From: an uncultured Cellvibrionales bacterium
GTDB lineage: Bacteria > Pseudomonadota > Gammaproteobacteria > Pseudomonadales > Porticoccaceae
Length of the DNA stretch: 64,000 nt
Reading direction: 5' to 3'
Assembly (NCBI GenBank): GCA_913062605.1
Contig: CAJXWQ010000002.1
Coordinates: 4,761 to 68,760 of the forward strand
Shown: in pieces, positions 36,670 through 53,444 of the stretch
Numbering within the stretch: the first letter of the stretch is position 1
Layout of the letters: each line of letters begins with the position of its first letter
Position numbers and translations under genes: made by a program
The notes under the pieces: model-generated
The model's database searches: none
What the model was told of the DNA's origin: nothing
Seen by the model: only the letters and a program-made list of their open reading frames with translations

Positions 36670-36749
36670 TCTGCCTTCCATGTTGTTATTGGTAGTGTAA
36701 TTATACCAACAAATGAGGCATATATGCCTTAGACACAAATGCCTCATAG

Positions 36750-37004
36750 ATGAACTCTAGGAGGATGGATGAAAAAACTATATTTAAGGCTTTTGGTACT
36801 GTTTTAAAACGGTATAGAAAGGCTCAAAGCACCACGCAAGAGAAGCTGGCCTTAGATACCGGCTTCGATCGCACATTCATTTCCAGAATGGAACGAGGAT
36901 TAACCCAGCCTTCAGTAGCATCGCTTTTTCAGATAGCAAAATCTCTCAAAGTCCCGGCTTCAGATATGATTATTTCAGTTGAAGCAGAATTAAAATCTAA
37001 GTGA
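36750..37004 (+). CDS. XRE-family helix-turn-helix transcriptional regulator
   Basis: 84 aa. QEKLALDTGFDRTFISRMERGLTQPSVASLFQIAKSL is a classic HTH_3 pattern. Alternative start at 36765. Divergent from the lipoprotein gene. Confidence 0.8.
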   Translation: MNSRRMDEKTIFKAFGTVLKRYRKAQSTTQEKLALDTGFDRTFISRMERGLTQPSVASLFQIAKSLKVPASDMIISVEAELKSK

Positions 37005-37282
37005 AATACTCTTCTTGCAAGGAGAAGTGACCTAAGAAGGGGGGTTCCTAGACCAACTTAATATTCGTATAAATTAACCCTTTCCAGATTCCACGGGCTG
37101 CACTGGACCATACGGCGCACCGATTTTAGTGTAGGTTCTAGAAATTATCACCACACGATAGAACCCTTGTAATACCCTATTCAATCCCGCAACCCTAATG
37201 AGGCTAACATTTTTTATAGCAATCTGTTGAATTCGATGCCCCCCCGAAACCCAGGCCATATATGGCTTACAAATCAAAAAAA

Positions 37283-37332
37283 CAGTGACTCTAATCGATT
37301 GGTCGAAGGTTCAAGTCCTTCTGGGCCCACCA
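37283..37332 (+). repeat. Degenerate direct repeat of the tRNA 3' part (att-like scar B)
   Basis: CAGTGACTCTAATCGATTGGTCGAAGGTTCAAGTCCTTCTGGGCCCACCA. Identical to the tRNA from TAATCG to CCA, with two 1-nt gaps upstream of that. Confidence 0.9.
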
Positions 37333-37478
37333 TATTTTACGAATCAATAGCTTATAGTCGTTGGGTCGCCCTACTCTATAGGCAAATGAGTCGGCGACTC
37401 CCTCAGTTCTCCGTAAGTCCCCCAGAACATCTTGTCATAAAATCAAAATAAGTAAGTCTTCGCACAAGGCCATCAACA

Positions 37479-37912
37479 ATGGACACCGTAGACTCAAAAA
37501 AGCGCTCACAAATGATGCCCACCATAAAAGGCAAAGACACCAAGCTTGAGCTAACTATCCGCCGCCCCCTTTATCACCGAGGTTACTGATACCGAACCAA
37601 TGTCAGGTCGCTACCGGGATGCCCCGACCTTGTATTCAAAAAGTACCACTCCGTAATTTTTATAAACAGCTGTTTTGGCACGGCCACAAAAACTGCCACC
37701 TCGCCTACACCCCAAAAACCCGCACGGAATTTTGGGCATCAAAAATATCGGCAACAAAACAGTGGGACAAAAAATGTATCGAAGACCTTGAGTAACTTGA
37801 CTGGCGAGCTCTTTCCGTATGGGAGTGCTGCATTGAAGGCAAAGCCATCAAGAATCTACCAACACTCACAAACCTTATTGAAACATGGCTAAAAAGCAGC
37901 CAAGCCTCCTAG
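37479..37912 (+). pseudogene. vsr: Very-short-patch repair endonuclease (Vsr) pseudogene
   Basis: MDTVDSKKRSQMMPTIKGKDTKLELTIRRPLYHRGY, then TGA, then YRTNVRSLPGMPDLVFKKYHSVIFINSCF. A frameshift leads to WHGHKNCHLAYTPKTRTEFWASKISATKQWDKKCIEDLE, then TAA, then LDWRALSVWECC... No dcm partner is present. Confidence 0.8.
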
Positions 37913-37999
37913 ACACTCAGAGCAAATAAAAGCATTTATGTTGACAAAAATTGAGTAACACTAAAAGATAGTGATCAATTACTATCTTTTGGAGCTGGT

Positions 38000-38608
38000 A
38001 TGCAGCCGAAAAGCAAACACTTGCCCGCAGATGAGCGCCGCGCTGTTACTGTTGAAGCCGTCATTGAGCTCTCGGCAGAACAAAATCCTGGTGATATAAC
38101 TACGTCAGCCATTGCTAGGCACATGAACTTAACTCAAGGTGCACTATTTCGCCATTTCCCCAATAAGGAAGCTATTTGGCAGGCAGTGATGGAATGGGTT
38201 TCGGAACACTTGCTCGCACGGGTAGACAAGGCGATAAAGGCTGAAAAAACACAACTTGCAGCACTGGAAGCGGTGTTTGTAACCCATATCGAATTTGTCG
38301 CAGCGCACCCGGGTGTACCGCGTATGCTGTTTGGTGAATTACAGCGGGCCGAGGATACTGCTCCTAAACGCATGGCGCGAACTCTTCTACGGAAATACGG
38401 TGAACGACTGACTGTATTGATAGAGAAGGGCAAGGCCGAAGGTGAAATTGATTCCGCTGTTGATACTGTGGCTGCGGGAACATTGTTCATAGGCACCATT
38501 CAAGGCTTGGTTATGCAGTCATTGCTAGCCGGGGATACTGGAAGTATGCGAGATAAGGTGCCAAGGGTATTCACAATTTATCGCCGAGGTATCGAGCGCA
38601 GCATATGA
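38000..38608 (+). CDS. TetR/AcrR-family transcriptional regulator
   Basis: 202 aa. N-terminal HTH ITTSAIARHMNLTQGALFRHFPNKEAI. 4-nt overlap with the adaptor gene. Confidence 0.88.
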   Translation: MQPKSKHLPADERRAVTVEAVIELSAEQNPGDITTSAIARHMNLTQGALFRHFPNKEAIWQAVMEWVSEHLLARVDKAIKAEKTQLAALEAVFVTHIEFVAAHPGVPRMLFGELQRAEDTAPKRMARTLLRKYGERLTVLIEKGKAEGEIDSAVDTVAAGTLFIGTIQGLVMQSLLAGDTGSMRDKVPRVFTIYRRGIERSI

Positions 38609-40014
38609 AAAAAATCATTCAGAAGCCGCTTATTCTACCGCTGATTGTTGTCGTTGCCTTGGCGCTGGTTATTTTTAAGGTGAAATCCAAGCCTCCTATT
38701 GAGCATGACGAACTGCAATTTCCCATCAAAACAGTGGAAGTCATTACACTTAAGAAGATTGCCTTTCGCAGTCGTGCCATTGCTTACGGTAATGTAGAGC
38801 CCGCTGTTTTGTTGAAAGCCAAAACTGAAGTTAGCGGCAAGATTAGTTATATTCACCCTTCCTTGAAAAAAGGCGCAAGTCTGGCCAAAGGCACTGTAGT
38901 TTTAAGAATTGAGCCGACCACTTTTGAGTTTTCGCTGGATCAGAGCAAGGCGGGTCTGGCGAGTAGTCAATCGTCCTTAACACAACTGGAAGTTGAGGAA
39001 ACAAGCACTCGCCGCTCTGTCGAAATCGCAGAACATAATTTACAGATTGGTGAAAAAGAATTAGATCGTTTTCGCAGTATTTTAGAGAGACAGTTAATTT
39101 CCCGTTCAGCCGTTGATGCTGAAGAACAGAAAGTATTGCAACTACGTCAGCAGGTTGAAGATTTGCAGGGAAAACTGGCAGGCTTCAGCAGCCGTAAAGC
39201 TGCAATTCAGGCACAAATCAAGCAATCCAAAACTCAGCTAGCTCAAAGTAAAGATACTCTGGGGCGCGCCGAAATTCGTCTGCCTTTTGATGCCCGTATC
39301 GGCGAGGTTTTAGTAGAGAAAGGAGAGTACGCTGCCGTTGGTAGTGTGTTGTTTGAAGCATTAGGTACACAGGCCGTTGAAATTAATGCTCAGTTACCTG
39401 TGCGTCAATTTTACCCACTAATTATGGGTGGTGAAACACGCAGTATCAATTTGCAAAAGCCGGAAGACTTGCAGATTGAATTTTCAAAACTTCAATTGAA
39501 GGCAAACGTTAGGCTGGTCGGGAACGACGCTAGCATTGCAAAATGGCACGGTGAATTGCTACGTATTAGCGAGTCCATTGACCCTGAACGGGATACGATA
39601 GGCCTGGTCGTTGTCGTCAATAATCCCTATGAAAAGGTGATCCCGGGCAAACGTCCACCCTTGCTGAAAGGCATGTATGCAGCCGTTGAAATTAGTGCGC
39701 GCCCTAAAGCCATGTTGGTTTTACCGAGAAAGGCTATCCACCAGGGACGTGTCTACATTGCCAAAGCAAATAATCAGTTAGAAATACGTCCAGTGAATAT
39801 TCTTCACAAACAAGGGCAATTGGTAATTGTTGGCGGTGGAGCCAAAGAGGGTGAGAGAATTATTATCACCGATGTTATTCCTGTAATTGATGGCTTGCCA
39901 CTTAAACCAGTCATGGCAAGGGAATATGAAAAACAGCTGGCTAGAGACGCGCTTGGTGAAGAAAACATAAGCCCAAATAAAATCAATGGGGATAAAAAAG
40001 GTGCGACGGAATGA
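38605..40014 (+). CDS. RND efflux periplasmic adaptor (membrane fusion protein)
   Basis: 469 aa. N-terminal TM, coiled-coil hairpin segment and beta-barrel C-terminal part. Translationally coupled to the RND pump. Confidence 0.8.
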   Translation: MKKIIQKPLILPLIVVVALALVIFKVKSKPPIEHDELQFPIKTVEVITLKKIAFRSRAIAYGNVEPAVLLKAKTEVSGKISYIHPSLKKGASLAKGTVVLRIEPTTFEFSLDQSKAGLASSQSSLTQLEVEETSTRRSVEIAEHNLQIGEKELDRFRSILERQLISRSAVDAEEQKVLQLRQQVEDLQGKLAGFSSRKAAIQAQIKQSKTQLAQSKDTLGRAEIRLPFDARIGEVLVEKGEYAAVGSVLFEALGTQAVEINAQLPVRQFYPLIMGGETRSINLQKPEDLQIEFSKLQLKANVRLVGNDASIAKWHGELLRISESIDPERDTIGLVVVVNNPYEKVIPGKRPPLLKGMYAAVEISARPKAMLVLPRKAIHQGRVYIAKANNQLEIRPVNILHKQGQLVIVGGGAKEGERIIITDVIPVIDGLPLKPVMAREYEKQLARDALGEENISPNKINGDKKGATE

Positions 40015-43000
40015 TTCGCTATTTTGCCGCACATCCCACCATCAGTAATATCCTGATGATGGCAATTATCGCCATTGGTTTTAGTTCATTGAGTGGGCTT
40101 AATAAAGAATCCTTTCCACTACTTAAGCCCAGTAAAGTACAAGTCACGGTTGCCTACCCTGGAGCGGGTCCAGCCGATGTTGAAGATGGCATTTGTAATC
40201 CACTGGAAGATGCCACAGACGGCATCAGCTTTTTAAAAGAGCAGGAGTGTGATGCCCGTGACAATATCGCTATTTTCACATTGGAAATGCAGGAAGCGGG
40301 AAATATACGTGAGTTTACCGATGATATTAAAACTGAAATCGATGCGATCCAGAACTTCCCGGAGAACATCGAAGACCCGGTGATCAAACAATTAGGGCGA
40401 ATTAACCCGGTTGCCAATATTGCCATCACCTCAGATAAATTAACAGCCACTGAATTAAAAGAACTGGCGGAGTATTACCGCGACCGCCTGATCGCCATGC
40501 CACAAATTCCAATTGTGAGTATGGATGGTTTCTCCACGCATCAATTGCAGATATTGATCCGTCCCGATATTCAACAAAAATACCATCTTAGTGTCCAGGA
40601 TATTGCTAACTTAATTGCAGCCCAGGCATTGGAGCTGCCTGCAGGGACATTGGAAGCGACAGAAACCTCCTATCAAATTCGCTTTGATAATGTCAGAAAG
40701 ACTGCCGATGAATTGGCAAATCTTATTATTATCAATACGCCCAAAGGCGGCGAAATCAAACTGGGCGATCTTGCTGAAATTGAGAACAAATTCGAAAAGC
40801 CTGAAGAGCGCATCGAGCTAAACGGTAAACCGGCAGCACTACTCAAAATCAGTAAAAACTCTATTGATGACACACTAAAAGTTGCCGACGCACTGATTGA
40901 GTTTGTTGAAAAAGAAAACAAAATTCTGCCTGAAGGAACACGGCTAACTATTGTGAGTGATGCCTCCACATTAGTGCGTGACAGGTTAAAACTGCTGCTA
41001 ACCAACGGTTGGCAGGGGCTGATTCTGGCAACTTTAATGCTGCTGCTATTTTTTTCATGGCGTTACACTTTCTGGATTGCCTTAGGTCTGCCTATTTCAT
41101 TTTTAGGTGGGCTGGCCATGATGGTGGTGTTTGGCGTGAGTATCAATATGATCTCAATGGTCGCCTTACTGATGGCTATCGGTATTTTAATGGATGATGC
41201 CATCGTACTGTCTGAAAATATTGATAATGAATACCGTAAAGGAAAGACGCCATTGGAAGCGGCGGTTGATGGCACCAAAAAGGTTTTTCGTGGCGTCTTT
41301 TCTTCCTATCTCACGTCTGCTTTTTTATTTGGTAGCTTGTTGATGATGACAGGCGATCTAGGGCAGGTGTTGGGCGTACTGCCTGTCGTTTTACTGTCAG
41401 TGCTTACTATTAGCTTGATTGAGGCATTTCTGGTGTTACCACACCACCTCAAGCACTCACTGAAACATTCGAACCATAAAACACCACCAAAATGGCGGCA
41501 GCAATTTGAAGCTCTGTTTGATCGATTTCGCCATACCGTTGGTCGTGCCGCCACTCTCGCTATGCAGTTCCGCTATATCACTGTTGGCATAGCACTAGCT
41601 ATGTTGATTTTTTCTGTCGGTTTGGTTGCGACTGGAATCGTTAAATTCAAGGCCTTTCCAGATCTGGAAGGCAATAATCTGGAGGCCAGAATTCTACTGC
41701 CGCAAGGCACACCATTGGCCGAAACTGAAAGAGTGGTGGATACATTGCTCGCTTCTCTGGATGAAACCAATAAAACCCTTAGCCAAAATGAGACTGAAGA
41801 ACTGGTTAAAAATGTGCAGCTTTCATATGGCAAGCATGGCGATGTACCTGAGAATGGCACGCATCTGGCAACTCTTAGCATTGATTTGCTCAATACCGAA
41901 GAACGCAACACTAAAATGGATGAGCTCATCCAGCTTTGGAAACAGCAAACCGGGGTGCTACCCGACGTACTCAGTATTCAATACAAAGAACCCAAGGTTG
42001 GTCCAGCGGGACGCGCCATTCATATTCGCCTGAGTGGACAAGATATGGATCAATTGTCACGGGCATCCTGGGAAGTACAAAACTGGCTCAGAGGTTATAT
42101 TGGCGTCAACAATTTGCTGGATGATCTTCGCCCAGGTAAGCCTCAGTACAATATCAAGCTTAAGCCTGGGGCATTAGTCGCAGGCATCGATTCACGTAGT
42201 ATTGCCTCTCAACTCCGATCGGCTTACCTGGAAGTTAAAATCAGTGAGATCTACAAGGGTCGCGAAGCCTATGAAATCATTGCCAAACTGGATAGCCTGC
42301 CAGGTCGTGAGTTACACGATTTTGATAATTTCACGGTATTTTCAAAAACCGGAAAAGAAATTCCCTTAGGCAGTGTCGCCATCATTACCGAGGAGCGTGA
42401 ATTTTCCCGAATAGGGCATATCAACCATCAACGCACAGTTAATATATATGGTGATGTCGATGCCGGCATCGCCAACACATCCGAGATCATTACAAACTTT
42501 CAAAGTGACTTTATAAACACTTTGCAGGAACGCTATCCTGACATCACTTTTAAACTTAAAGGCGAGGTCGAGAACGGCGCGGAAACTAAATTATCGATAC
42601 TCTCAGGCTTCGGGCTTGGCTCTATTGGAGTATTTCTGTTGCTTAGTTTGCAATTTCGCAATTTCCGCGAACCGATTGTTGTAATGGTCAATATTCCTCT
42701 TGCCCTCATCGGCGCGATCTGGGGACATTTGATTATGGGCTTGGATTTCACTTTACCGAGCATGATCGGTTTCGTTTCCCTGGCAGGTATCGTCGTGAAT
42801 GATTCGATCCTGCTGGTCGAATTTGTAAAATATCGAGTGGAAGAGGGTATGGTGCTTCATGATGCTGCAAGGCAAGCAGTATATGATCGTTTTCGAGCCA
42901 TATTTCTTACTTCCGTCACTACCATTGCTGGCATGACACCCTTGCTGTTTGAAACCAGTACACAAGCATTAATTCTTGTCCCGTTGGTGACCAGCATTGT

Positions 43001-43118
43001 ATTTGGCATGCTGACATCCACAGTATTGATTATGCTGGTATTGCCTGCCATGTATGCAATTATGGAAGATATTGGTTTTGTGAAATTGTCGGCAGAACCA
43101 GAGCGGATAGCTGCATAG
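40011..43118 (+). CDS. RND-superfamily efflux permease (AcrB/AcrD/AcrF family)
   Basis: 1035 aa. Twofold TM1-loop-TM2-6 architecture and typical length. No outer-membrane factor gene is adjacent. Confidence 0.9.
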   Translation: MIRYFAAHPTISNILMMAIIAIGFSSLSGLNKESFPLLKPSKVQVTVAYPGAGPADVEDGICNPLEDATDGISFLKEQECDARDNIAIFTLEMQEAGNIREFTDDIKTEIDAIQNFPENIEDPVIKQLGRINPVANIAITSDKLTATELKELAEYYRDRLIAMPQIPIVSMDGFSTHQLQILIRPDIQQKYHLSVQDIANLIAAQALELPAGTLEATETSYQIRFDNVRKTADELANLIIINTPKGGEIKLGDLAEIENKFEKPEERIELNGKPAALLKISKNSIDDTLKVADALIEFVEKENKILPEGTRLTIVSDASTLVRDRLKLLLTNGWQGLILATLMLLLFFSWRYTFWIALGLPISFLGGLAMMVVFGVSINMISMVALLMAIGILMDDAIVLSENIDNEYRKGKTPLEAAVDGTKKVFRGVFSSYLTSAFLFGSLLMMTGDLGQVLGVLPVVLLSVLTISLIEAFLVLPHHLKHSLKHSNHKTPPKWRQQFEALFDRFRHTVGRAATLAMQFRYITVGIALAMLIFSVGLVATGIVKFKAFPDLEGNNLEARILLPQGTPLAETERVVDTLLASLDETNKTLSQNETEELVKNVQLSYGKHGDVPENGTHLATLSIDLLNTEERNTKMDELIQLWKQQTGVLPDVLSIQYKEPKVGPAGRAIHIRLSGQDMDQLSRASWEVQNWLRGYIGVNNLLDDLRPGKPQYNIKLKPGALVAGIDSRSIASQLRSAYLEVKISEIYKGREAYEIIAKLDSLPGRELHDFDNFTVFSKTGKEIPLGSVAIITEEREFSRIGHINHQRTVNIYGDVDAGIANTSEIITNFQSDFINTLQERYPDITFKLKGEVENGAETKLSILSGFGLGSIGVFLLLSLQFRNFREPIVVMVNIPLALIGAIWGHLIMGLDFTLPSMIGFVSLAGIVVNDSILLVEFVKYRVEEGMVLHDAARQAVYDRFRAIFLTSVTTIAGMTPLLFETSTQALILVPLVTSIVFGMLTSTVLIMLVLPAMYAIMEDIGFVKLSAEPERIAA

Positions 43119-43221
43119 TCAAAGCTTGTGAGAATTGAAATATATCCAGGTCAGCCAGCTACAGGTGATATACAACAAATACAATTCTCCATACCGCTTA
43201 TAATCAAATAGAAAGCACACC

Positions 43222-43457
43222 ATGAAAACTTATAAATTACTATCCTCCTAGGGGACAACGGTTCTGAGTGATACACCAGGCACGTTGGGAAGAAACAGTA
43301 AGGCTAGTATTTACGGTCGCCTCGATTGCTCAGCTGAAAATAGAGCTCTCTCGAAAGGTTATGACCAACACCGTGTATTTTTTGCCAATGAACAGAATGC
43401 CATACAAGCGGGATACCGACCTTGTGGAAGCTGTATGAGGAGCAGTACAAAAAATGA
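43222..43457 (+). pseudogene. Ada-type metal-binding-domain small protein, pseudogene (in-frame TAG plus frameshift)
   Basis: MKTYKLLSS, then TAG, then GTTVLSDTPGTLGRNSKASIYGRLDCSAENRALSKGYDQHRVFFANEQNAIQAGYRPCGSCM. The expected ending EEQYKK-stop is in another frame. Track ORF 43285-43776 runs through the tRNA repeat and is an artefact. Confidence 0.6.
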
Positions 43458-43510
43458 AAGTCTGGCCCAGAGGGTGAAGGGAGTTACCCTTGGAGAAAGT
43501 TACCAGACTG

Positions 43511-43857
43511 AAAGCCCCTCCGAGTCCACCAAGTTCGGTTTTCGTTCGGTATTCCGCATACAACTTTCCATACGGTTCATAACCGAATGGCCTGTCGCCA
43601 CTGACTTCCGACGCCAACAAGTTCGGTCATGGTTCGGTCTATTTCCAGCCCACTCCAGCCGCCTCAAAAACCCCTTACAATTCTTCCACTTAGGACAGCC
43701 AAATCAGCAGTCCGTGCTTCTCATAATCGATTGGTCGAAGGTTCAAGTCCTTCTGGGCCCACCATTTCTCTTATAATTCATAGGCTTGCCATAAGCTGAG
43801 CATCCGAGTCTATGGGCAGAGCGGGTGACCTTTTTTTGTGCCTGTCGTCTGGCGACG
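43511..43857 (+). repeat. ~345-bp island-junction repeat unit C (contains tRNA 3' fragment 43720-43764)
   Basis: Collinear with unit D (50773-51116): about 210 bp upstream with GTTCGG/CCGAAC motifs, the 45-bp tRNA core, and about 93 bp downstream (TTTCTCTTATAATTCATAGGCTTGC...GGCGACG). Confidence 0.9.
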
Positions 43858-43939
43858 TGTCGACAGGTGCGTCAATTGTTTGCTCCCTTTTCTTTTTGTG
43901 CTACCTATGGGCTACTTTCAGACAGCTTCAAATCCTGCC

Positions 43940-44011
43940 TCGTAACGCCCAACTAAGGGGCTAAAAAAAGCCCGGCTTTTGACAGCCCATGCATTAAGCG
44001 GCTTGTTATGT
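43940..44011 (-). repeat. attC-like imperfect palindrome 1 (downstream of GNAT gene)
   Basis: Reverse strand: ACATAAC starts 4 nt after the GNAT stop and the element ends in GTTACGA. 72 bp. Shares TAACGCC...AAGGGGC arm sequence with element 2. Confidence 0.5.
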
Positions 44012-44015
44012 GCTT

Positions 44016-44552
44016 TCACCAATATTCCTGTTTATTCAATGCTTTTACGCACTCAGATGAGCCTTCCATTACATCAATCACGCCACTTTGTAGTGATTGG
44101 GCAAGCCAACCTTCAGGCTGTGTTAGTTTTAAAGGCGCTTTTACAATATCTTCGCTGATTTGTTGAAAACCTACTTTAGAGTAAAAGGTTGGATCTCCAT
44201 ATGTGAATACTAGGTCTACATCTTTGAGCCTTAGGTACTCAATACCATACCTGATAAGTTGTTGACCTATTCCTTTTCCCTGTTGTTCTGTAGCAATAGC
44301 AACAGGGGATAGAATAAATGCAATTTTTTCACTCGGAAGTGTAAGGCGGCTGAAGAATATACAACCTACTATTTCTTCTTCCAGAACTGCAACAAAGCCC
44401 AAGATATCACGTTCATCAGTCGTAATGATTAGATCGGACACCAAGCTACCAATTGATTCACCTTCGCCCTGCCCTTCAGAGTCAGAGAACACTTTAGTAA
44501 AGAGATTGATAACATCTGGAGACTGATTTTCACTAAAGGTCGAAATCTTCAT
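44016..44552 (-). CDS. GNAT-family N-acetyltransferase
   Basis: 178 aa. Acetyl-CoA motif QQGKGIGQQLIRYGI. Confidence 0.85.
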   Translation of the reverse strand: MKISTFSENQSPDVINLFTKVFSDSEGQGEGESIGSLVSDLIITTDERDILGFVAVLEEEIVGCIFFSRLTLPSEKIAFILSPVAIATEQQGKGIGQQLIRYGIEYLRLKDVDLVFTYGDPTFYSKVGFQQISEDIVKAPLKLTQPEGWLAQSLQSGVIDVMEGSSECVKALNKQEYW

Positions 44553-44595
44553 CCTTTTAACTCAATCTCATTTTTGTGCCATGAAGTACGCAGAC

Positions 44596-44656
44596 ACATA
44601 ACGCCTAGTTAAGGGGCGCATGGTGTTTTGCGTCCCGCTTGAACGTCTTGTTAGGC
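44596..44656 (-). repeat. attC-like imperfect palindrome 2 (downstream of DUF4405-like gene)
   Basis: Reverse strand: GCCTAAC (RYYYAAC) starts 5 nt after the stop and the element ends in GTTATGT. 61 bp. The arms pair, with bulged G and T bases. Confidence 0.6.
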
Positions 44657-44661
44657 ATGTG

Positions 44662-45045
44662 TTAACGATTATGATGATAATGCTGCGGCCCTCTTTGAAT
44701 ATCAGTAACTGGAGACAAAATCGGAGAAAATGCGAGAGCAATTAAAGCTATTAACCCCAGTACTCCAGCTATTATTCGGTAATATTTTTCTGTTGGGGCC
44801 TTTCCCATTATCACGCTTTTGATGAATTTTGCATGCACTACTAAATGTGCAGACACAAACAACAAAAAAATAACAGAGAGGTAATAATGAACATTACCCC
44901 AATCATGTCTTGATAAGCCCCACACTTCATCTCCACCACTTCTTGGGGGTAGAGTGACTTTTAGAAAAATACCAGTAGAGAGCATGAACATTAATGCTAC
45001 AAAGGAAAGAAAATCTAGGATCTTTGTAATTAAAAATTGGTTCAT
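44662..45045 (-). CDS. Small membrane protein, DUF4405-like (His-containing, cytochrome-b-like helices)
   Basis: 127 aa with 3-4 hydrophobic helices. WGNVHYYLSVIFLLFVSAHLVVH pattern. Family assignment is from memory. Confidence 0.6.
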   Translation of the reverse strand: MNQFLITKILDFLSFVALMFMLSTGIFLKVTLPPRSGGDEVWGLSRHDWGNVHYYLSVIFLLFVSAHLVVHAKFIKSVIMGKAPTEKYYRIIAGVLGLIALIALAFSPILSPVTDIQRGPQHYHHNR

Positions 45046-45064
45046 AGTTCTTCTCTTGTCATGT

Positions 45065-45093
45065 GCCTAACGCCGCATTTTGCGGCGTAACGG
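45065..45093. repeat. Short palindrome GCCTAACGCCGCA-TTT-TGCGGCGTAACGG (degenerate or half attC-like element)
   Basis: Shares the GCCTAAC / TAACGCC motifs with the other elements but is too short for a full attC. Confidence 0.3.
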
Positions 45094-45174
45094 GAAATTT
45101 GTTCGACAACAGTGTCTTGGTATGTATTTACGTTAAGTTACACCGAACTAAGCACAGCCTCCTTGCTTAGCTAT

Positions 45175-45237
45175 ACATAACTCCCCGCCCAAGGGCTTTC
45201 ATCTAGCAAGCCCTTGGTTTGAGGTGGGTGGTTAGAT
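45175..45237 (-). repeat. attC-like imperfect palindrome 4 (downstream of cytochrome c peroxidase gene)
   Basis: Reverse strand: ATCTAAC (RYYYAAC) starts 3 nt after the stop and the element ends in GTTATGT. 63 bp. Central 10-bp perfect stem CCAAGGGCTT/AAGCCCTTGG, with bulged flanks. Confidence 0.6.
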
Positions 45238-45240
45238 GAA

Positions 45241-46227
45241 TTACTCAAAAGGCTTTGGTTTGGGGGTGCTATCTGTGGATGGAGGCAAGATTGGCAATAC
45301 GAAGGTAGGCTGGTCACCAGTGAGTGTTTTAAGGAAGGCGACAATTTTCGCATTTTCCTCAGGGGTGAAATTCTTAGCCAGCTGTAATCTGCCCATGACA
45401 TCAACTGCCTCAGTGAGGGTTTCAGCCTCACCATCATGAAAATAGGGATAGGTCAGTTCCACATTGCGTAGAGTTGGAACTTTGAACCTGAAACGATCAG
45501 TATCTTTTCCGGTAACAGCAACCAAACCCTCAGCTGGATTCTTTGTGTCATATGCTTCAATTACGCCCATTTTCTGGAAAGAAGTACCACCCATCGCAGG
45601 ACCATTGTGGCAGGCCTGACAACCCGAATTTTGGAATAGTTGGTAGCCAGCAGTTTCATCAACGGATAGCACGTCCTTATCGCCCAAGAGCCATTGATCG
45701 AATCGAGAATTTGGTGTGACTAATGTTTTTTCAAATTCGGCAATCGCCTGTGTGACCTGATCAATATCGATCTTGTTTTTGCCAAACACTTGTTTGAATT
45801 CTGCTATATATTGTGGAATTGACTCTAATACATTAATAGCAAGGGCATGAGTTGATGCCATTTCGCCGGGGTTTTCGATGGGCCCGCCAGCTTGGGCCTT
45901 TAGATCTGCTGCGCGACCATCCCAAAACTGGGCAATATTCATACTAGAGTTAAGTACAGTCGGAGCGTTGATAGGGCCCTGTTGCCAATTATGTCCTATG
46001 GAAGTCTTCAGGTTATCTGTTCCACCCAGACTAAGGTTATGGCATGAGTTACAGGAAATAAACCCAGACTTGGATAACCTGGGATCAAAATACAACTTCT
46101 TGCCTAATTCAACTTGTGCAAGATTCAATTCTTTTGCGGGCACTATCGGCTCTATTGCTAACGCCCCAATTATAAAACCCAATAGCCCCACACTAATGAA
46201 TGATAAAACAAGTAGATTTTTCTTCAC
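45241..46227 (-). CDS. Di-heme cytochrome c peroxidase (CcpA/MauG family)
   Basis: Two CxxCH motifs (CNSCH, CQACH) and a signal-anchor N-terminus. GTG start at 46227 preceded by GGAG; the track ORF extends to 46281. Confidence 0.88.
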   Translation of the reverse strand: MKKNLLVLSFISVGLLGFIIGALAIEPIVPAKELNLAQVELGKKLYFDPRLSKSGFISCNSCHNLSLGGTDNLKTSIGHNWQQGPINAPTVLNSSMNIAQFWDGRAADLKAQAGGPIENPGEMASTHALAINVLESIPQYIAEFKQVFGKNKIDIDQVTQAIAEFEKTLVTPNSRFDQWLLGDKDVLSVDETAGYQLFQNSGCQACHNGPAMGGTSFQKMGVIEAYDTKNPAEGLVAVTGKDTDRFRFKVPTLRNVELTYPYFHDGEAETLTEAVDVMGRLQLAKNFTPEENAKIVAFLKTLTGDQPTFVLPILPPSTDSTPKPKPFE

Positions 46228-46317
46228 AACTAACTCCGATTTTTTGATAAAAATAAGGTGTCTTAATTCAACACATGACACCTAGTGCTGCGACTGGAAC
46301 ATCTTGTCCTGCACATT

Positions 46318-46605
46318 TTATTTGTGGGCAATAAGTTTATCCGTAAACAAATAATCTTTTAGCTCTTTATCAAAGCTAGGGTCTTTTCTTCTTATCCATT
46401 CAAGAACCATTGCTGCATGCTCTTTCTCCTCATCTCTATTATGAGCAAGGATTGCTTTTAATTCTTCATCTTTACATGCATCTACTCGTTGATTGTACCA
46501 ATCTACGGCTTCAAGCTCTTCCATCAGCGATATAATAGCTCTATGCATATCTCTTGTTTCGTTTGTAAGCTCTTCTATAGGCTCGTGATAACCTTCATTT
46601 GACAT
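46318..46605 (-). CDS. Encapsulated-ferritin-like (EncFtn family) protein lacking a C-terminal encapsulin targeting peptide
   Basis: 95 aa. HRAIISLMEELEAVDWYNQRVDACKDEELKAILAHNRDEEKEHAAMVLEWIRR closely matches the EncFtn core as I recall it from Rhodospirillum rubrum, including the Glu/Glu-x-x-His iron ligands. The protein ends at LFTDKLIAHK. Confidence 0.75.
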   Translation of the reverse strand: MSNEGYHEPIEELTNETRDMHRAIISLMEELEAVDWYNQRVDACKDEELKAILAHNRDEEKEHAAMVLEWIRRKDPSFDKELKDYLFTDKLIAHK

Positions 46606-46778
46606 GTTTTTTCCTCGGTAATTGGATGGCTTCGATAATTCATAACGGTTTGCCGTTCAGCAGCTGCGACCTCAGCCAACTGCCCGCCCTATCGGGGTGT
46701 GATCTGACTTTCCTTTATTTTTTATTTTCCAAGCCTAAAACTATTTGCCCACTTAGTGGCGTGAAATCAAACGTCTCT

Positions 46779-47795
46779 TTACTCCATAGCAGCTGTGTAC
46801 TGGCCATACCTCGCCACACCATTTAGCTTGGCTCGCTTATACAACGCCGCTTGCATTTGTTTTGCATTGGCCGCATTCCCTTTCCAAGCAACCAAAGCTG
46901 GATGTTGCAACGCGCGCCCATAAGAAAAACTCAGCTCCCATGGATGCAGCCCGATTTGGTTCATTGCATTCAGATATTCGGTTGATGCTTCATCCGACAG
47001 CCCACCAGAAAGAAAATGAATAGAGGGTACTGCCGCTGGCACCGTTCTTCTTAAAATCTTAACTGTCTCGTGAGCGATTTCTTCTGGGGTGGCTTGTTTC
47101 GTACAATCCTTCCCCGGAACAATCATATTGGGTTTTAGTAGGATATGCTCCAGAGTAACCCCCTCTTGCACTAGAGCTTGGAACACAGCATGTTGAACAG
47201 CTTCTGTTACTTTCGCGCACTGCTCCATGGTGTGGTCACCATCCATCAATACTTCGGGCTCTACAATCGGCACCATACCCGCTTCCTGACAAACCTTCGC
47301 GTAACGCGCTAACACCTTAGCGTTCTCATCAATAGCCAGTTGACTCGGCGTGTGTTGGGAAATGGTATACACGTCACGCCACTTGGCAAATCGCGCCCCT
47401 TGTTTTTTATAGCCGTCTAAACGCTCAGCCAAACCTTCTAGACCTACAGTAATTTCGTCGCCAAGCTCACCGCCCTCGAGAGAAATCTTACCTTTATCAA
47501 CCTTAATGCCAGGCACGACGCCCTGCTTAACCAATAATTCAGGAATAGGAACACCATTGTCATCAAACTGCCCTAACGTCTCTTCGAACAAGATGACACC
47601 GCTAATAAATTCGCCAAGACCGGGCGTTGATAGCAATAAACTGCGGTAAGCACGACGCTTTTCCTCCGTCGATTCGACCTCAATGGCAGTAAAGCGTTTA
47701 GCTATTGTTGGGCTACTTTCATCCGCCGCCAAAATACCTTTGCCTTTAGCGGCTAATGCATCAACCGTCGTCTGAAGTTGCTGAACTCTATTCAT
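46779..47795 (-). CDS. Class I fructose-bisphosphate aldolase
   Basis: 338 aa. GKGILAADES, LLKPNM (Schiff-base Lys region) and LSGG motifs. Confidence 0.88.
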   Translation of the reverse strand: MNRVQQLQTTVDALAAKGKGILAADESSPTIAKRFTAIEVESTEEKRRAYRSLLLSTPGLGEFISGVILFEETLGQFDDNGVPIPELLVKQGVVPGIKVDKGKISLEGGELGDEITVGLEGLAERLDGYKKQGARFAKWRDVYTISQHTPSQLAIDENAKVLARYAKVCQEAGMVPIVEPEVLMDGDHTMEQCAKVTEAVQHAVFQALVQEGVTLEHILLKPNMIVPGKDCTKQATPEEIAHETVKILRRTVPAAVPSIHFLSGGLSDEASTEYLNAMNQIGLHPWELSFSYGRALQHPALVAWKGNAANAKQMQAALYKRAKLNGVARYGQYTAAME

Positions 47796-47972
47796 AAGCT
47801 ATGTCCTCTCACTTTACGATAATCGGATTAATGCCTTGACGACAGTGGCCGCCAAAGATATCGACAACAATACCAATAATACTATCAGGCGGGTTTCCAC
47901 GCTGGATACTTGGCTTATGCCTTTGGCATCTCTAGTGCCGGCACTTTATATTATATATATCTAATCTATATT

Positions 47973-47987
47973 TATCTAATTTAGATA
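47973..47987. promoter_or_regulatory. Palindrome TATCTAA-T-TTAGATA, candidate ArsR/BigR operator
   Basis: Perfect 7-1-7 inverted repeat about 40 nt upstream of the ArsR-family gene start, within an AT-rich promoter region. Confidence 0.45.
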
Positions 47988-48025
47988 CATGTGATATAGT
48001 TGACTCCAAGATTGGAGAATAATGT

Positions 48026-48352
48026 ATGACAACAAACCAAGATGTTATGACTAAAGATATGGCTGCGTTACAAAAACACGCCAAGGATGCTGCTAATTTA
48101 TTAAAAACGCTAGGCAACGAACATCGATTGCTCGTGCTGTGTACGCTAATGAATAGCGAGCTATCCGTCGGTGAACTGAATGACATGATACCTTTGAGCC
48201 AATCGTCACTATCCCAACATCTGGCCTCGCTGAGAAAGGCGGGACTGGTGCAAACACGCAGAGAGTCTCAAACCATTTATTACCGCCTGTGTGGCGACGA
48301 GGCCATTAGAATTATTTCTGTTCTTCAGTCAATTTATTGTCCCGATTTATAA
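48026..48352 (+). CDS. ArsR/SmtB-family repressor (BigR-like)
   Basis: 108 aa. LKTLGNEHRLLVLCTL...ELSVGEL...SQSSLSQHLASLRKAGLV winged-HTH. Heads a sulfur-related operon. Confidence 0.85.
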   Translation: MTTNQDVMTKDMAALQKHAKDAANLLKTLGNEHRLLVLCTLMNSELSVGELNDMIPLSQSSLSQHLASLRKAGLVQTRRESQTIYYRLCGDEAIRIISVLQSIYCPDL

Positions 48353-48364
48353 ACGAGGTATACC

Positions 48365-48910
48365 ATGACCAACCCACAAACAACAATTTCTGTAACTGAT
48401 TTTGCATCCCTAATCGATTCGAATAGCAACGTAACCATTGTTGATGTTCGCACCAAAGCAGAAATTGATAACGAATTTCTTGAGGGCTGCCTGAACGTAC
48501 CATTGCAAGATATTACCGCGGCCACCTTTGAATCGGCGGTGGCCCATTGTGACACTGCAGACACTATTTACTTGTTGTGCGGCAGTGGATTACGGGCCCA
48601 AAAAGCTACCGAACAGCTGCAAGGTGCAATTGCCAACCCCCTAGTGGTTGTTTCAGGAGGTATTCAGGCGATGAAGCAGGCCGGAATTAGCCTGAAGAAA
48701 GGCCGTGGTAATGTAATTTCACTGGAACGACAAGTTCGTATTACTGCGGGCTCACTGGTTGTACTGGGGGTCATTTTAGGCAGCTTGGTTACACCGGGGC
48801 TTTATGGTCTATCTGCTTTTGTTGGTATAGGGCTCGTTTTTTCCGGTGTCACAGATACTTGTGGTATGGGAATGATCATGGCTCGTATGCCATGGAATCG
48901 CTCAGCTTAG
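48365..48910 (+). CDS. Rhodanese-domain protein with C-terminal DUF2892-type membrane domain (YgaP-like)
   Basis: 181 aa. Active-site loop CGSGLRA. C-terminal hydrophobic hairpin with GVTDTCGMG. Confidence 0.8.
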   Translation: MTNPQTTISVTDFASLIDSNSNVTIVDVRTKAEIDNEFLEGCLNVPLQDITAATFESAVAHCDTADTIYLLCGSGLRAQKATEQLQGAIANPLVVVSGGIQAMKQAGISLKKGRGNVISLERQVRITAGSLVVLGVILGSLVTPGLYGLSAFVGIGLVFSGVTDTCGMGMIMARMPWNRSA

Positions 48911-48920
48911 GTCACGCTCT

Positions 48921-49751
48921 ATGGCACTGTTAATTGGTATGGTGATTGGCTTGGTACTTGGTCTGACCGGTGCGGGGGGATCTGTGTTTGCTGTACCACT
49001 GCTTATCCTGCTGCTGTCACTACCCGTCAGTGATGCCATAGGTATCGCTCTGGGCGCTGTCGCCATCAGCGCACTCTACGGCACTATCAATAACTGGCGC
49101 TACAAAAGTATTTTATGGATTCCTTCCATCATTCTGGGGACGACTGGCGTCTTGTTCGCCCCTCTGGGTAAATTGATCGGTAATCAGCTATCTCCCTCAC
49201 TACTGCTAGTAGGCTTTAACGGTTTGGCCATTATGGTTGCACTGCACATGTGGCGACAAGCATCCAAACACCCGGAGCAAACCAGCATTGTTCGTTCTGG
49301 CCATATGACACCAGAAAATTTTGTGGGCCCTGCATGCCGTATGAGTACCACTGGGCAGTTCGAGTGGCGACCTCGCTGCGTGGGTAGTCTGGCAGCTGGA
49401 GGAATGATCGTGGGGTTACTAACCGGTTTATTTGGCGTGGGGGGTGGCTTTTTAATTGTGCCATTACTGATATTCCTCAGCCAGGTCTCCATGCAGCAGG
49501 CAGTGGGAACCTCTCTGCTGATCATCACCGCGGTTGCCACGTCAGGGTTTTTAAGCTTTACCGCCACTGCACCCAATGTGAATTGGGCCCTTCTAGGGCT
49601 TATCGCCACTGGAGGAGTTGTGGGTATGTTTATTGGCCGCCTAGTGAGTCACAAGATCGCCAGCCCGCAATTGCAAAAGATATTTTCCATCAGCCTAATT
49701 GCCATTGCCCTTATAACCCTAGCCCATCAATGGACAGCCAGCCCACCTTAA
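48921..49751 (+). CDS. TauE/SafE-family sulfite/anion exporter
   Basis: 276 aa. Two repeats of a GxGGG-containing 4-TM unit (LTGAGGSVF, LFGVGGGFL). Confidence 0.8.
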   Translation: MALLIGMVIGLVLGLTGAGGSVFAVPLLILLLSLPVSDAIGIALGAVAISALYGTINNWRYKSILWIPSIILGTTGVLFAPLGKLIGNQLSPSLLLVGFNGLAIMVALHMWRQASKHPEQTSIVRSGHMTPENFVGPACRMSTTGQFEWRPRCVGSLAAGGMIVGLLTGLFGVGGGFLIVPLLIFLSQVSMQQAVGTSLLIITAVATSGFLSFTATAPNVNWALLGLIATGGVVGMFIGRLVSHKIASPQLQKIFSISLIAIALITLAHQWTASPP

Positions 49752-49768
49752 ATGATCGGGAGCCCGCT

Positions 49769-50467
49769 ATGATTTTTAGACAACTATTCGATATCCAATC
49801 ATCTACCTACACTTACTTGATAGCCGATGAGGATACAGGTGAAGCCGCCCTGATCGACCCCGTCATCGATAAGACTGATGACTACCTGATGTTACTGATG
49901 CAACTAGAGCTTAAGTTAATTGTTGCTGCCGACACCCATACCCACGCTGATCACATCACTGCATTGGGCCTGTTACGGGAGCATACAGGCTGCCAGACAA
50001 TGGTGGGGCAGCAATCTATTGCGGAATGTGTGTCCAGTAAATTTTCAGCAGGTGATCATATTGTGGTTGGCAAACTTAGCCTGGAAATTCTGTACACGCC
50101 GGGGCATACGGATGACTCCTACAGCTTTTATCTGTCATCCGACGGTCGGTCAATGTTGTTTACTGGTGATACCTTACTGATTCGTGGTACCGGGCGTACA
50201 GATTTTCAAAGTGGTGATCCCCGACAACAATACGACAGCTTATTTGGAAGTTTACTGACATTCACCGGTGATACGCTGGTATATCCAGGCCATGATTATA
50301 AAGGCTGGTCAGTGAGCACCATTGATGAAGAAAGAACTCACAACCCGCGACTGCAAGTGACCAATAGCGATGCTTATGCCGAACTAATGGATGGTTTGAT
50401 GTTGCCCAACCCTAAATTGATGGATGTGGCCGTGCCGGCCAATCAGAAGTGTGGAAATACTCGGTAG
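49769..50467 (+). CDS. Metallo-beta-lactamase-fold persulfide (sulfur) dioxygenase, ETHE1/Blh-like
   Basis: Track ORF starts at 49583 inside the previous gene. ATG at 49769 (MIFRQLFDIQSSTYTYLI) is the usual start. THTHADH motif is present. Confidence 0.85.
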   Translation: MIFRQLFDIQSSTYTYLIADEDTGEAALIDPVIDKTDDYLMLLMQLELKLIVAADTHTHADHITALGLLREHTGCQTMVGQQSIAECVSSKFSAGDHIVVGKLSLEILYTPGHTDDSYSFYLSSDGRSMLFTGDTLLIRGTGRTDFQSGDPRQQYDSLFGSLLTFTGDTLVYPGHDYKGWSVSTIDEERTHNPRLQVTNSDAYAELMDGLMLPNPKLMDVAVPANQKCGNTR

Positions 50468-50772
50468 GCATGGTAAGTTTTTGCCAGATTCAGAACCAAT
50501 ATCGAGGCATTAGATCAAGCGACAGAAATTTTTCGAGCAGCCAAAGGTGCTTCTTATGAGGACGCCCTTAGGATGGCTACCAAAGGAAACTGCAAGCTCC
50601 TGGTAAAAAAGTTTCTGAGACTTTTCGGACAAGTTGTCAACGGCAAAATTCACCAAGATGAGCAATGGAGGACTGAAGGGATTAACGGTATAAAGGAAAT
50701 TCAAGCCAAGCTTGGAAAAGCTGATTGTTGGGATTCGGTTTGACTAGCAGTCTCTCAGAACCAAAATACTAC

Positions 50773-51116
50773 CAAAGCCCTAACCTACCAGGTTCGGTTT
50801 TCGTTCGGTGTTCTACATACAGCTTCCCATGCAGCTCATAACCGAATGACCGATTAAAACCAACTTCTGACTCCAGCAAGTTCGGCCATGGTTCGGCTAG
50901 CGGTCGACACACACCAGCAACCTCAAAAACTCCTTACACTTCTTTCCCTTACGACGCCCAAAACCAACAGTGCGAGGTACTCATAATCGATTGGTCGAAG
51001 GTTCAAGTCCTTCTGGGCCCACCATTTCTCTTATAATTCATAGGCTTGCTATAAGCTGAGCATCCGACTCTATGGGCAGAGCGGGTGGCCTTTTTTGTGC
51101 CTGTCGTTTGGCGACG
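50773..51116 (+). repeat. ~345-bp island-junction repeat unit D (contains tRNA 3' fragment 50979-51024)
   Basis: Collinear with unit C. Same GTTCGG motif layout and same 3' flank. Confidence 0.9.
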
Positions 51117-51170
51117 CCAGCACCCGCCGGCTCTAAAGCATCAAGAATACTCTCTGAACAACCACTACAG

Positions 51171-51216
51171 ACTCATAATCGGCAGGTCCCCAGTTCAAGT
51201 CTGGGAAGGCCCACCA
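51171..51216 (+). repeat. 3' fragment of a different tRNA(CAU) allele
   Basis: ACTCATAATCGGCAGGTCCCCAGTTCAAGTCTGGGAAGGCCCACCA. It has its own T arm (CCCAG/CTGGG) and the acceptor 3' strand AAGGCCC. No 5' half is present. Confidence 0.8.
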
Positions 51217-51221
51217 ATATG

Positions 51222-51249
51222 CCTCAGCCTGATAAGGTTGAGGTTTTTT
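51222..51249 (+). terminator. Rho-independent terminator attached to the heterologous tRNA fragment
   Basis: CCTCAGCC-TGATAA-GGTTGAGG followed by TTTTTT. Confidence 0.7.
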
Positions 51250-51885
51250 CTTTGCCCGCATATTGCGGCGAACAAATACACTTACACAAACCGCCAGAAC
51301 ATGCACGATAATTGCAGTCGAAAATAACCTGTACCGAGAGCCTGAGAAAGCCTAGAAGCGCTAATATCTATAGCTGAGGATGTTGGATTGGTGTGCAACA
51401 ACGCCCACAACCGGCTCCTGAGTCGAACCTGAGGTCAACGGCTAGTATTAGTTCCAACACCGAATATCTTTCTGGACAACTTCTTTAGGCAAGATTCACG
51501 CCTGAGCAACCAATCTATATGGATACATATAGAGCGACAGGTTTAACCACCCCCTTAAATTTTCGACAAGTGATTAATCATCACCCATTTTTCTACTTCA
51601 TATCAAATGCTCTCTCAGATAATAAGCCCTAGCTGAAGCGGTTTTGACAACAGCATCTTTGCCCTTGCCAACATTAACTGATAGCGATTAGAATCGCTGA
51701 CTTAGGGCAAAAAATCAGTGAGCCTAATACTCAAATCGTATAGTTAATTGCAGATCGCCCTTGACCAGCTCCCAGGAACGACTTGCTGAGCCACTGAAAA
51801 AGAATGGTATCGGAACTACCTTCAGCAAGTAACAAAACAAGGAGCATTTAGCACACGATGAGAAGCCACTGGGGGAAAACGTTTA

Positions 51886-52683
51886 ATGAGAGGCGCAATG
51901 AATGGATATCGCTTAGGTGCTACTTTTATTAAATGTATTAGTGCTGAGGTATTGGGTTCTGCTGCGGTAAACCACCCATATTTGCAAGCAATGCGTGAGG
52001 GTGATTTCCCCAATATTGACTTGGCGTTTAAGGATTTTGCATTTCAGTACGGTTTATATAGCACTATGTTTACCCGTTATGTATCAGCAGTGATTAAGAA
52101 CCTCAGTAATACTGAACACAAGAAAGTTCTTCTGGCCAATCTAGCCGAAGAACAAGGCGATACTCACGATGTTGATCTACCTCCCGGTGTGCTGGCCAGC
52201 GTAGTCGGACAACCACACGCAAGCTTATATCGCCGCTTTCAAGAAGCTCTGGGGATTGATGCCGATTACTGCAAAACTGCACAACAGTGCCAAACAAGCC
52301 TGTTGTGGGGTCAACAGTTTTTACAGCTGTGTAAGATGAACGAGTGTGTCGGTGTGGGCGCTATCGGTATTGGTACCGAACTTGTCGTTTCCCCTATTTA
52401 TGATCAGATTCTTGAAGGGCTTAAAACACATAGCAACCTGACGATGACACAACGTGTGTTCTTTGATTTGCACAGCCAATGTGATGAAGAGCATGCTGCC
52501 CAAATGCTATTGATTACCGAAGATTTGGCTCAGGATCGCACTGCTTGTGAACAAATTGAATATGGCGCTAGAATGGCTATCAACATGCGAGTTGCCTTTT
52601 GGGACAAAATGCTAGAACGTGCCCATAACTTTCCCGCCTCCACCCTCCCTGCTATTGAGAAGTTATCTGCCGTTGGATACTGA
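51886..52683 (+). CDS. Heme-oxygenase-like fold, iron-containing redox enzyme family protein (putative diiron oxidase/oxygenase)
   Basis: 265 aa, all-helical pattern. NLAEEQGD, PHASLYRRF, GTELVV and FFDLHSQCDEEHA match the E/H/E/H-D-H ligand layout of the PF14518-type family. A GGGGGA RBS lies 9 nt upstream. Confidence 0.75.
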   Translation: MRGAMNGYRLGATFIKCISAEVLGSAAVNHPYLQAMREGDFPNIDLAFKDFAFQYGLYSTMFTRYVSAVIKNLSNTEHKKVLLANLAEEQGDTHDVDLPPGVLASVVGQPHASLYRRFQEALGIDADYCKTAQQCQTSLLWGQQFLQLCKMNECVGVGAIGIGTELVVSPIYDQILEGLKTHSNLTMTQRVFFDLHSQCDEEHAAQMLLITEDLAQDRTACEQIEYGARMAINMRVAFWDKMLERAHNFPASTLPAIEKLSAVGY

Positions 52684-53419: not shown

Positions 53420-53444
53420 TGACGGCTGCCCCTAGGTCAACACA

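Follow-up and report, generated by a model that had tools for sequence, protein, structure and literature searches.

An integron cassette is a promoterless circle made up of an open reading frame (ORF) and an attC site, and the integron integrase recombines the folded bottom strand of that site at G/TT of the core site. We describe here a stretch of 64,000 nucleotides from an uncultured bacterium of the Porticoccaceae (contig CAJXWQ010000002.1, positions 4,761 to 68,760, hereafter the window), the minus strand of which very probably carries, at 43940-45125, a small cassette array with three attC sites and no integrase. Arrays of this kind, clusters of attC sites that have no integron integrase (CALIN), have been defined as two or more attC sites that share a strand, are separated by less than 4 kb and have no integrase nearby; 279 were found in the genome set in which they were described, 83% of them with no more than five attC sites, and about half lie in replicons or genomes that also encode IntI, rearrangements being able to split integrons (Cury et al. 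2016, IntegronFinder, PMC4889954). The three sites of the window, which we call attC-b, attC2 and attC3 in the order of transcription, lie on the minus strand within 1.2 kb of each other and no integrase was found in the window. That the locus is a CALIN-like array had been proposed from the letters alone by an earlier sequence-only reading, and this is borne out by a covariance model test, by homologues of the cassettes elsewhere, by a break in homology at attC2 and by the lack of an integrase in the window.

The sites were sought with a covariance model of our own (R2) that was trained on 14 attC sites from outside the window, seven of them from a class 1 integron and seven from marine arrays. 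The class 1 sites are those of the estX-psp-aadA2-cmlA1-aadA1 array plus one further site, all from plasmid pSTM6-275, which was reached through the aadA attC sequence (present in at least 1941 plasmid records at 99% identity or more). The marine sites come from cassette arrays around homologues of a GNAT acetyltransferase gene that the window also carries, and since the attC sites following the GNAT genes themselves were left out of the training the test of attC3 stays independent. An alignment of full-length attC sites made with MAFFT misplaced the 3' arms and was replaced by a gap-free, normalised alignment of the arms only; this gave a bootstrap model (R1), with which the real sites were realigned to yield the final model R2.

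When both strands of the window (128 kb of strand) were searched with R2, filters off, the three best matches were attC2 (44656-44596, minus; 54.3 bits, E=1.5e-11), attC-b (45125-45065, minus; 22.3 bits, E=0.0025) and attC3 (44011-43940, minus; 15.0 bits, E=0.2); a covariance model test was the check that the sequence-only reading had asked for. The three matches share one strand, span 1.2 kb and have the same orientation as the genes, the minus strand being the coding strand of every gene in the array region; the fourth match (16168-16142; 12.3 bits, E=1) lies elsewhere in the window. The RYYYAAC and GTTRRRY ends that bound attC sites, 57-141 nt apart, are found here, with the AAC of attC-b mutated in the window and present, as ACATAAC, in L105, a metagenome scaffold of a close relative. 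In a control of 95.9 kb of unrelated loci, again with filters off, the maximum was 14.5 bits and eight matches had E<10, thus the E-values are roughly calibrated. A second control, of 1.33 Mb of loci around peroxidase homologues searched with default filters, gave one match of 15 bits or more (15.1) besides a probable real attC of 27.0 bits in locus L048. Genuine attC sites of GNAT cassettes that had been held out score 14.9-40.4 bits with R2, a range within which the score of attC3 falls. An alignment of 31 sites gives the structure strong support: the share of paired cells is 86.5%, as compared with 66% for shuffles and 30-41% for slid partners, and of the nine L-stem pairs in the main helix eight have compensatory changes, figures that carry the caveat that the alignment was fitted to the model. 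Other approaches discriminated less: gathering and permissive Rfam scans of the window returned two tRNAs and noise and no attC-like match, a screen for core-flanked palindromes by regular expression and folding energy (608 candidates) was too noisy, and unconstrained DNA folding is not diagnostic, several genuine attC sites folding no better than shuffles.

The highest scoring site, attC2 (44596-44656, minus, 61 nt), is a textbook attC. It begins 5 nt after the stop codon of a DUF4405 gene and has R'' GCCTAAC, L'' GTTCAAG, L' CTTAAC and R' GTTATGT; under the model 6 of 7 R-box and 12 of 12 L-stem positions pair, and the cruder model R1 gives it 42.2 bits (E=1.9e-08). On its bottom strand, which is the plus strand of the window, there is a 5/5-nt unpaired spacer followed by single-base bulges G, G and T on the 3' arm, spaced by 3 bp, and the same three-bulge pattern occurs in attC sites of loci L001, L002 and L098. 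The orthologue of attC2 in L105 (10390-10451) scores 29.4 bits. The cassette that attC2 closes is 469 bp long (44602-45070, minus) and holds an ORF at 45045-44662 for a small membrane protein of 127 aa (Pfam PF14358) with a distant likeness to cytochrome b561 and ferric reductase. Homologues of this protein, at 57-93% identity, are found in Porticoccaceae, other Gammaproteobacteria and Zetaproteobacteria, and scaffold L108 has a homologue of 76% identity as part of an array in which 11 or more attC matches share one strand, and this homologue is followed by an attC that is visibly homologous to attC2.

The second site, attC-b (45065-45125, minus, 61 nt), lies between a peroxidase gene, the stop codon of which is 115 nt away, and the DUF4405 gene. 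Its R' is GTTAGGC and its R'' has been mutated to ACATACC, the model pairs 4 of 7 R-box and 8 of 12 L-stem positions, and it can only partly be folded with L''/L' pairing and extrahelical bases. Its orthologue in L105 (9905-9976) is intact, being 72 nt long with R'' ACATAAC and scoring 32.9 bits (E=3.2e-06) with R2, and therefore attC-b is a real attC that has decayed, with approximately 11 nt of its interior missing. What the sequence-only reading had taken for a half-length copy at 45065-45093 is actually the 3' half of this 61-nt site.

The third site, attC3 (43940-44011, minus, 72 nt; R'' ACATAAC, R' GTTACGA), agrees with the model over the R box, the spacer and the two short stems that come next, and then continues with larger bulges and an inner hairpin (AAAAGCC/GGCTTTT); its extra bases fall on the correct arm when aligned by hand, an arrangement that the minimum free energy fold does not reproduce. 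The site lies 4 nt behind the stop codon of the GNAT gene (44552-44016, minus, 178 aa; Pfam PF13508/PF00583/PF13527), and the same placement is seen in the GNAT cassettes of L001, L088, L089, L090, L096 and L098. A search gave 2093 GNAT homologues, nearly all of the best 120 listed being 178 aa long, and they come from Amphritea, Halioglobus, Desulfobulbia and a large number of short metagenome contigs. In Amphritea sp. HPY (L001) the homologue (84% identity) is the fourth gene of an array, the first cassettes of which end in canonical attC sites; in the metagenome contigs L088, L089, L090, L096 and L098 ACATAAC begins 3-4 nt behind the GNAT stop codon and belongs to a complete attC, a different one in each contig; an attC follows the GNAT stop in six contexts. 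The 5' end of the cassette, TTATGTGTC.GCGT..TCATGGCA, stands directly after the G of unrelated preceding attC sites in L088, L089, L090 and the window, and this common start after the G of whichever attC precedes places the 5' boundary of the GNAT cassette of the window at 44601. The cassette is thus 656 bp long (43946-44601, minus), from TTATGTGTC... to the G of attC3 R', and to judge from the contexts in which it recurs the GNAT gene behaves as a mobile cassette. Exact-sequence look-ups with the window's own GNAT sequence found no match. A consensus promoter scan found nothing promoter-like on the gene strand within or ahead of the GNAT and DUF4405 cassettes, and their G+C contents of 40.5% and 39.2% respectively compare with 48% for the flanking aldolase and sulfur genes and 45% for the window.

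Two further loci with GNAT homologues have features of their own. In contigs L002-L007 (approximately 9290-10565) a GNAT cassette of 86% identity has an ABC transporter operon on one side and, on the other, a convergent gene for a peptidase M16; some of these contigs have a toxin-antitoxin-like cassette (HTH_3 antitoxin) with a canonical attC ahead of it, and the attC of the GNAT gene itself is cut off after R''-AAGCTGC. These may be cassettes at a secondary site, and a preprint describes integrase-mediated insertion of cassettes at secondary genomic sites outside att sites (bioRxiv 10.1101/2022.09.11.507474). Ahead of the first Amphritea cassette (L001:8150-8500) there are approximately 2.5 direct repeats of CACGACAGTTGTTGCGCGTTTA together with a number of GCGCATGCGC palindromes, and a single GTTAGGC closes the stretch; it has no integrase within 8 kb and could be an attI-like or regulatory region.

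The edges of the DUF4405 and GNAT cassettes can be set by comparison with a relative. An EncFtn-like gene, the peroxidase gene and the DUF4405 gene occur in the same order in a Porticoccaceae metagenome-assembled genome (MAG; GCA_002746985.1, L104) and in the metagenome scaffolds L105-L107, and L105:8337-10450 forms a block 95% identical to window positions 46693-44597 in a different genomic context. Housekeeping-type genes that both carry (the aldolase and the ArsR-rhodanese-TauE-metallo-beta-lactamase genes) are 84-91% identical and arranged differently. The match to L104-L107 ends at the GTTATG of attC2 R'; beyond it the GNAT cassette follows in the window and unrelated sequence in the relative, and the 5' sequence of the GNAT cassette is absent from L105. 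The junction, read from the two sequences, is that expected from the integrase-mediated gain or loss of one cassette.

Several observations weigh against an array of this description. Taken alone attC3 is borderline (E=0.2), its L-stem pairs at only 5 of 12 positions, and its bulges are A, A and ATG and not single G or T bases. The conserved AAC of R'' is lost in attC-b, the z-score of the canonical attC2 fold is only modest, and without constraints attC3 and both attC sites of the relative fold as DNA no better than shuffles do. The array has no clean left boundary, there being neither an attI nor a complete attC upstream, and as the flanks beyond it are not homologous between the window and L105 there is no empty site to compare and insertion of the GNAT cassette is indistinguishable from its loss. 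R2 is a home-made model with a shortened calibration that stands in for that of IntegronFinder, and the statement that the integrase is lacking holds for the 64-kb window.

The integrase was looked for in several ways. A tblastn search of the window with a truncated IntI1 query of 288 aa, of which approximately 235 aa are authentic and the rest is read-through into IS26, gave nothing significant, the best match (E=0.028) being a small ORF 20 kb away; a Pfam scan of 30 window ORFs showed no tyrosine recombinase, nor was one recognised in the neighbourhood of the array. An intI gene with an adjacent attI and a Pc promoter, as in a complete integron, was not found in the window. The small ORF (24076-24261, plus, 61 aa) has a faint likeness to the N-terminus of IntI that is also seen with the NCBIfam model NF011946 'integron integrase' (E=0.049), and a LexA-box-like CTGTATATAAACACAT lies just upstream of it. 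It was considered as an intI remnant and rejected, as its product is one of a conserved family, proteins of 60-88 aa that share the motif HPVTLGPEQ(I/L)SRFF, and the ORF is therefore no pseudogene.

Each of the two cassettes (DUF4405, 45070-44602; GNAT, 44601-43946) would once have been a circle of a promoterless ORF and its attC, which an integron integrase would have inserted through the folded bottom strand, the plus strand of the window, at the G/TT core site. Their expression would depend on read-through from the EncFtn/peroxidase transcript. Given the lack of an integrase in the window and the mutation in the conserved AAC triplet of attC-b, what we see is probably the remnant of an array in decay; attC2, and perhaps attC3, could still be used in trans by an integrase encoded elsewhere in the genome or arriving from outside.

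An alternative is that the array is one arm of a complete integron, with the integrase and attI elsewhere in the genome after a split by rearrangement or by the tRNA-Met islands described below, and with cassettes that are still shuffled. The region is clearly rearranged relative to that of the Porticoccaceae relative, the array stands beside a tRNA-Met island hotspot, attC2 has the look of a fully functional site, and the sharing of a genome or replicon with IntI by around half of CALIN, together with the splitting of integrons by rearrangement (PMC4889954), would fit with such an origin. However, 64 kb of sequence hold no integron integrase and their sole faint IntI-like ORF is the conserved small gene dealt with above, attC-b has decayed here and is intact in the relative, and the relative's own 20-kb loci are likewise without IntI, which together make a split integron rather unlikely.

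Directly after the peroxidase gene, 3 nt from its stop codon, is a 63-nt palindrome (45175-45237, minus; ATCTAAC...GTTATGT) that the sequence-only reading had counted as the first attC. Palindromes do follow the three stop codons as it had claimed, at gaps of 3, 5 and 4 nt, and the attC assignment stands for attC2 and attC3 and is not supported for this one. Were all four palindromes attC sites, the array would consist of the peroxidase unit, an ORF-less mini-cassette of approximately 110 bp, the DUF4405 cassette and the GNAT cassette. In favour of the 63-nt palindrome are its perfect RYYYAAC (ATCTAAC), a GTTATGT close to the consensus, extra bases that fall on the correct arm (3', bottom strand), a folding energy per base that is the best of the 608 core-flanked candidates in the window, with a DNA fold z-score of -2.25, and a position 50 nt from a confirmed attC. 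Yet neither R1 nor R2 matches it on its own strand (45237-45175, minus) at E<=10, an internal loop of 2/2 nt stands in place of an unpaired spacer of 5-6 nt and a 6-nt bulge in place of single extrahelical bases, and the mini-cassette would have no ORF. Its R''-like end reads ATCAAAC in L105, where changes to the outer arm are confined to one side, the strictly conserved part being the inner 10-bp hairpin CCAAGGGCTT-N9-AAGCCCTTGG, which occurs only at the orthologous position in relatives, and peroxidase homologues elsewhere end in plain hairpins. An array of four attC sites therefore seems distinctly improbable, and the 63-nt palindrome is most probably just a hairpin or a site that died long ago. 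That the palindromes are all ordinary hairpins, whether terminators or members of a family of repetitive extragenic palindromes (REP), with core-like ends by coincidence, is scarcely credible, for although each stands just after a stop codon as terminators do, attC3 holds an AAAAGCC-N3-GGCTTTT hairpin with a T run and the folding z-scores are modest, attC2 reaches 54 bits against a model built on class 1 and marine attC sites, a simple terminator scan calls none of these sites on the gene strand, further copies are absent from the window (none above 12.3 bits) and from the 1.3 Mb of control loci, in other genomes these genes lie in arrays and have other attC sites in the corresponding place, and homology with the relative ends at the G/TT crossover point.

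Ahead of attC-b lies a unit of two genes (45071-46693, minus) that may itself be a cassette, namely the EncFtn-like gene (46605-46318, 95 aa; Pfam PF22277) and the gene for a di-haem cytochrome c peroxidase (CCP; 46227-45241, 328 aa; Pfam PF03150). The left end of the block common with L105 (46640-46693, minus) ends in GCTGCTGAAC-GGCAAACC-GTTATGA, 41 nt before the ATG of the EncFtn-like gene; homology with L105 starts at approximately 46693 and there is no recognisable attI there. By eye this stretch resembles an attC 3' half and may be what is left of an upstream attC after truncation, and R2 has no match at 46640-46693. In favour of a cassette, attC-b accompanies the unit both in the window and in L105, the contexts of which differ. 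Against it, the 80 peroxidase homologues that were compared (73-82% identity; Gamma-, Beta- and Alphaproteobacteria and Scalindua) are ordinary genes of the chromosome, mostly followed by a hairpin or T-run terminator and in no case by an attC, and an EncFtn gene adjoins the peroxidase gene in the same orientation at 0 of the 80 loci; the direct pairing of the two genes is confined to the window and its Porticoccaceae relative. We regard the status of the unit as an integron cassette as a tentative proposal, with chances that at best approach even. A fuller version, in which EncFtn-CCP is a two-gene cassette of ~1.6 kb (46645-45071) closed by attC-b and the EncFtn, peroxidase and DUF4405 genes make up a peroxide and iron stress module spread by integrons, is doubtful; if it were true the small cytochrome b-like DUF4405 membrane protein would serve the periplasmic peroxidase.

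Homologues of the two genes have settings of their own elsewhere. Close EncFtn homologues (84-89% identity; L010:7508-7795) lie between an Fe-S oxidoreductase gene and an ORF that is DUF3501-like by eye, on the opposite strand to the peroxidase gene and approximately 3 kb from it; weak R2 matches around the L010 gene were considered as attC sites and discarded, as they fall inside GC-rich coding genes of the Fe-S oxidoreductase-EncFtn operon. No encapsulin shell gene lies next to the EncFtn-like gene of the window (46318-46605). Locus L048, from a gammaproteobacterial MAG, has attC matches at 36-140 (27.0 bits) and 3773-3845 (20.2 bits) that flank, among others, an ORF for a Tse2-like ADP-ribosyltransferase toxin. 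The pair is an unrelated small CALIN, and the L048 peroxidase was rejected as a cassette since the array is separate and lies 4 kb upstream of it, the peroxidase itself standing in a Fur-CCP-purU context.

The large ORFs from approximately 38000 to 50500 encode a TetR regulator, a membrane-fusion protein, a resistance-nodulation-division (RND) type pump, the array, an aldolase, ArsR, a rhodanese, a TauE-type protein and a metallo-beta-lactamase-type protein; the pump was named from its sequence and not from Pfam, and the last two through the Pfam matches of their L105 orthologues. The aldolase is of class I (47795-46779, minus; Pfam PF00274). Its nearest relatives were tried as a comparison for the array and set aside, one contig ending at the gene and the other losing homology at the aldolase stop codon. 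On L102 (3766-4460; aldolase 85% identical), where homology to the window ends at that codon, the aldolase gene is followed by a 69-aa ORF and then by an R''-like half-site, CGCTAACAAGCG, and no full attC; the spot downstream of the aldolase gene seems to be variable in this lineage.

On the other side of the array a 45-nt piece at 43720-43764 is identical to the 3' ends of the two intact tRNA-Met genes of the window (35952-36028 and 56554-56630). A 7.7-kb island (36029-43719) with the TetR regulator, membrane-fusion protein and RND pump is inserted into tRNA-Met, and as the displaced fragment lies only 176 nt beyond the last palindrome the array abuts the displaced end of the island-invaded tRNA gene. 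A second tRNA-like 3' fragment at approximately 51168-51211 has a CAT anticodon loop, a T arm and a CCA end, and ARAGORN made no call there. It falls in a segment (50518-56770) with a haem-oxygenase-like gene, a methyltransferase gene, a 913-aa ORF and the second tRNA-Met gene, which is missing from L105, where the metallo-beta-lactamase gene abuts a cytochrome b561 gene, and which looks like another island. Further away, at approximately 1350-23900, is a polysaccharide/O-antigen cluster with glycosyltransferases, a sulfotransferase, Wzz and an O-antigen ligase, in which a pair of GDP-mannose 4,6-dehydratase and epimerase genes occurs twice (2243-4394 and 15321-17410).

With this array a small CALIN is on record for a marine lineage that is related to Porticoccaceae and has been little sampled, its cassette boundaries being exact to the base by comparison with a relative, and the case shows that the reading of raw sequence alone can spot integron recombination sites. 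As an example it is routine, chromosomal cassette remnants here storing accessory genes (GNAT and DUF4405) with a wide circulation in marine bacteria; the one question of broader interest is whether the pair of peroxidase and ferritin-like genes travels as a cassette.

The sites and cassettes can be set beside four known systems. The attC of aadA1 from pSTM6-275 and attC2, both approximately 60 nt long, have the full box architecture and much of their sequence in common, as attC2 reads GCCTAAC-AAGAC-GTTCAAGC...CTTAAC-TAGGC-GTTATGT and the aadA1 attC GTCTAAC-AATTC-GTTCAAGC...CTTAAC-TCAAGC-GTTAGAT. Both have the extrahelical G in the bottom-strand L box and their spacers are 5 and 5-6 nt respectively, whilst there are three bulged bases in attC2 and two in the aadA sites. 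Class 1 integrons as a whole differ from the locus described here, which has no intI1, attI1 or 3' conserved segment and the cassettes of which are environmental genes of unclear role. With the secondary-site insertions described in the preprint cited above (bioRxiv 10.1101/2022.09.11.507474) the window shares cassettes that lie outside a complete integron and beside housekeeping genes; it differs in that its GNAT cassette follows a proper attC (attC2), and an ordinary attC x attC event therefore suffices with no need for insertion at a secondary site.

The likeness is closer to the sedentary arrays of marine Gammaproteobacteria, those of Amphritea sp. HPY and L108, which carry the same cassette genes (GNAT at 84% and DUF4405 at 76% identity) with the same style of attC and the same orientation of gene to attC. 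No integrase was seen in these two loci either, nor is a complete integron demonstrated there. The window has three attC sites against at least 11 attC matches in L108, and the attC sites that follow GNAT homologues differ greatly between arrays. Closest of all are the CALIN, a kind of element that is known and common. As in these the cassettes here are small (469 and 656 bp), promoterless, of a single ORF and co-oriented with their attC sites, their genes are not resistance genes and are of poorly known function, and the array is small. Nothing essential sets the locus apart from other CALIN when membership is judged with our own covariance model and not that of IntegronFinder; one of its three attC sites has decayed, it abuts the two-gene EncFtn-like and peroxidase unit, and it is otherwise an ordinary array with two clear cassettes.

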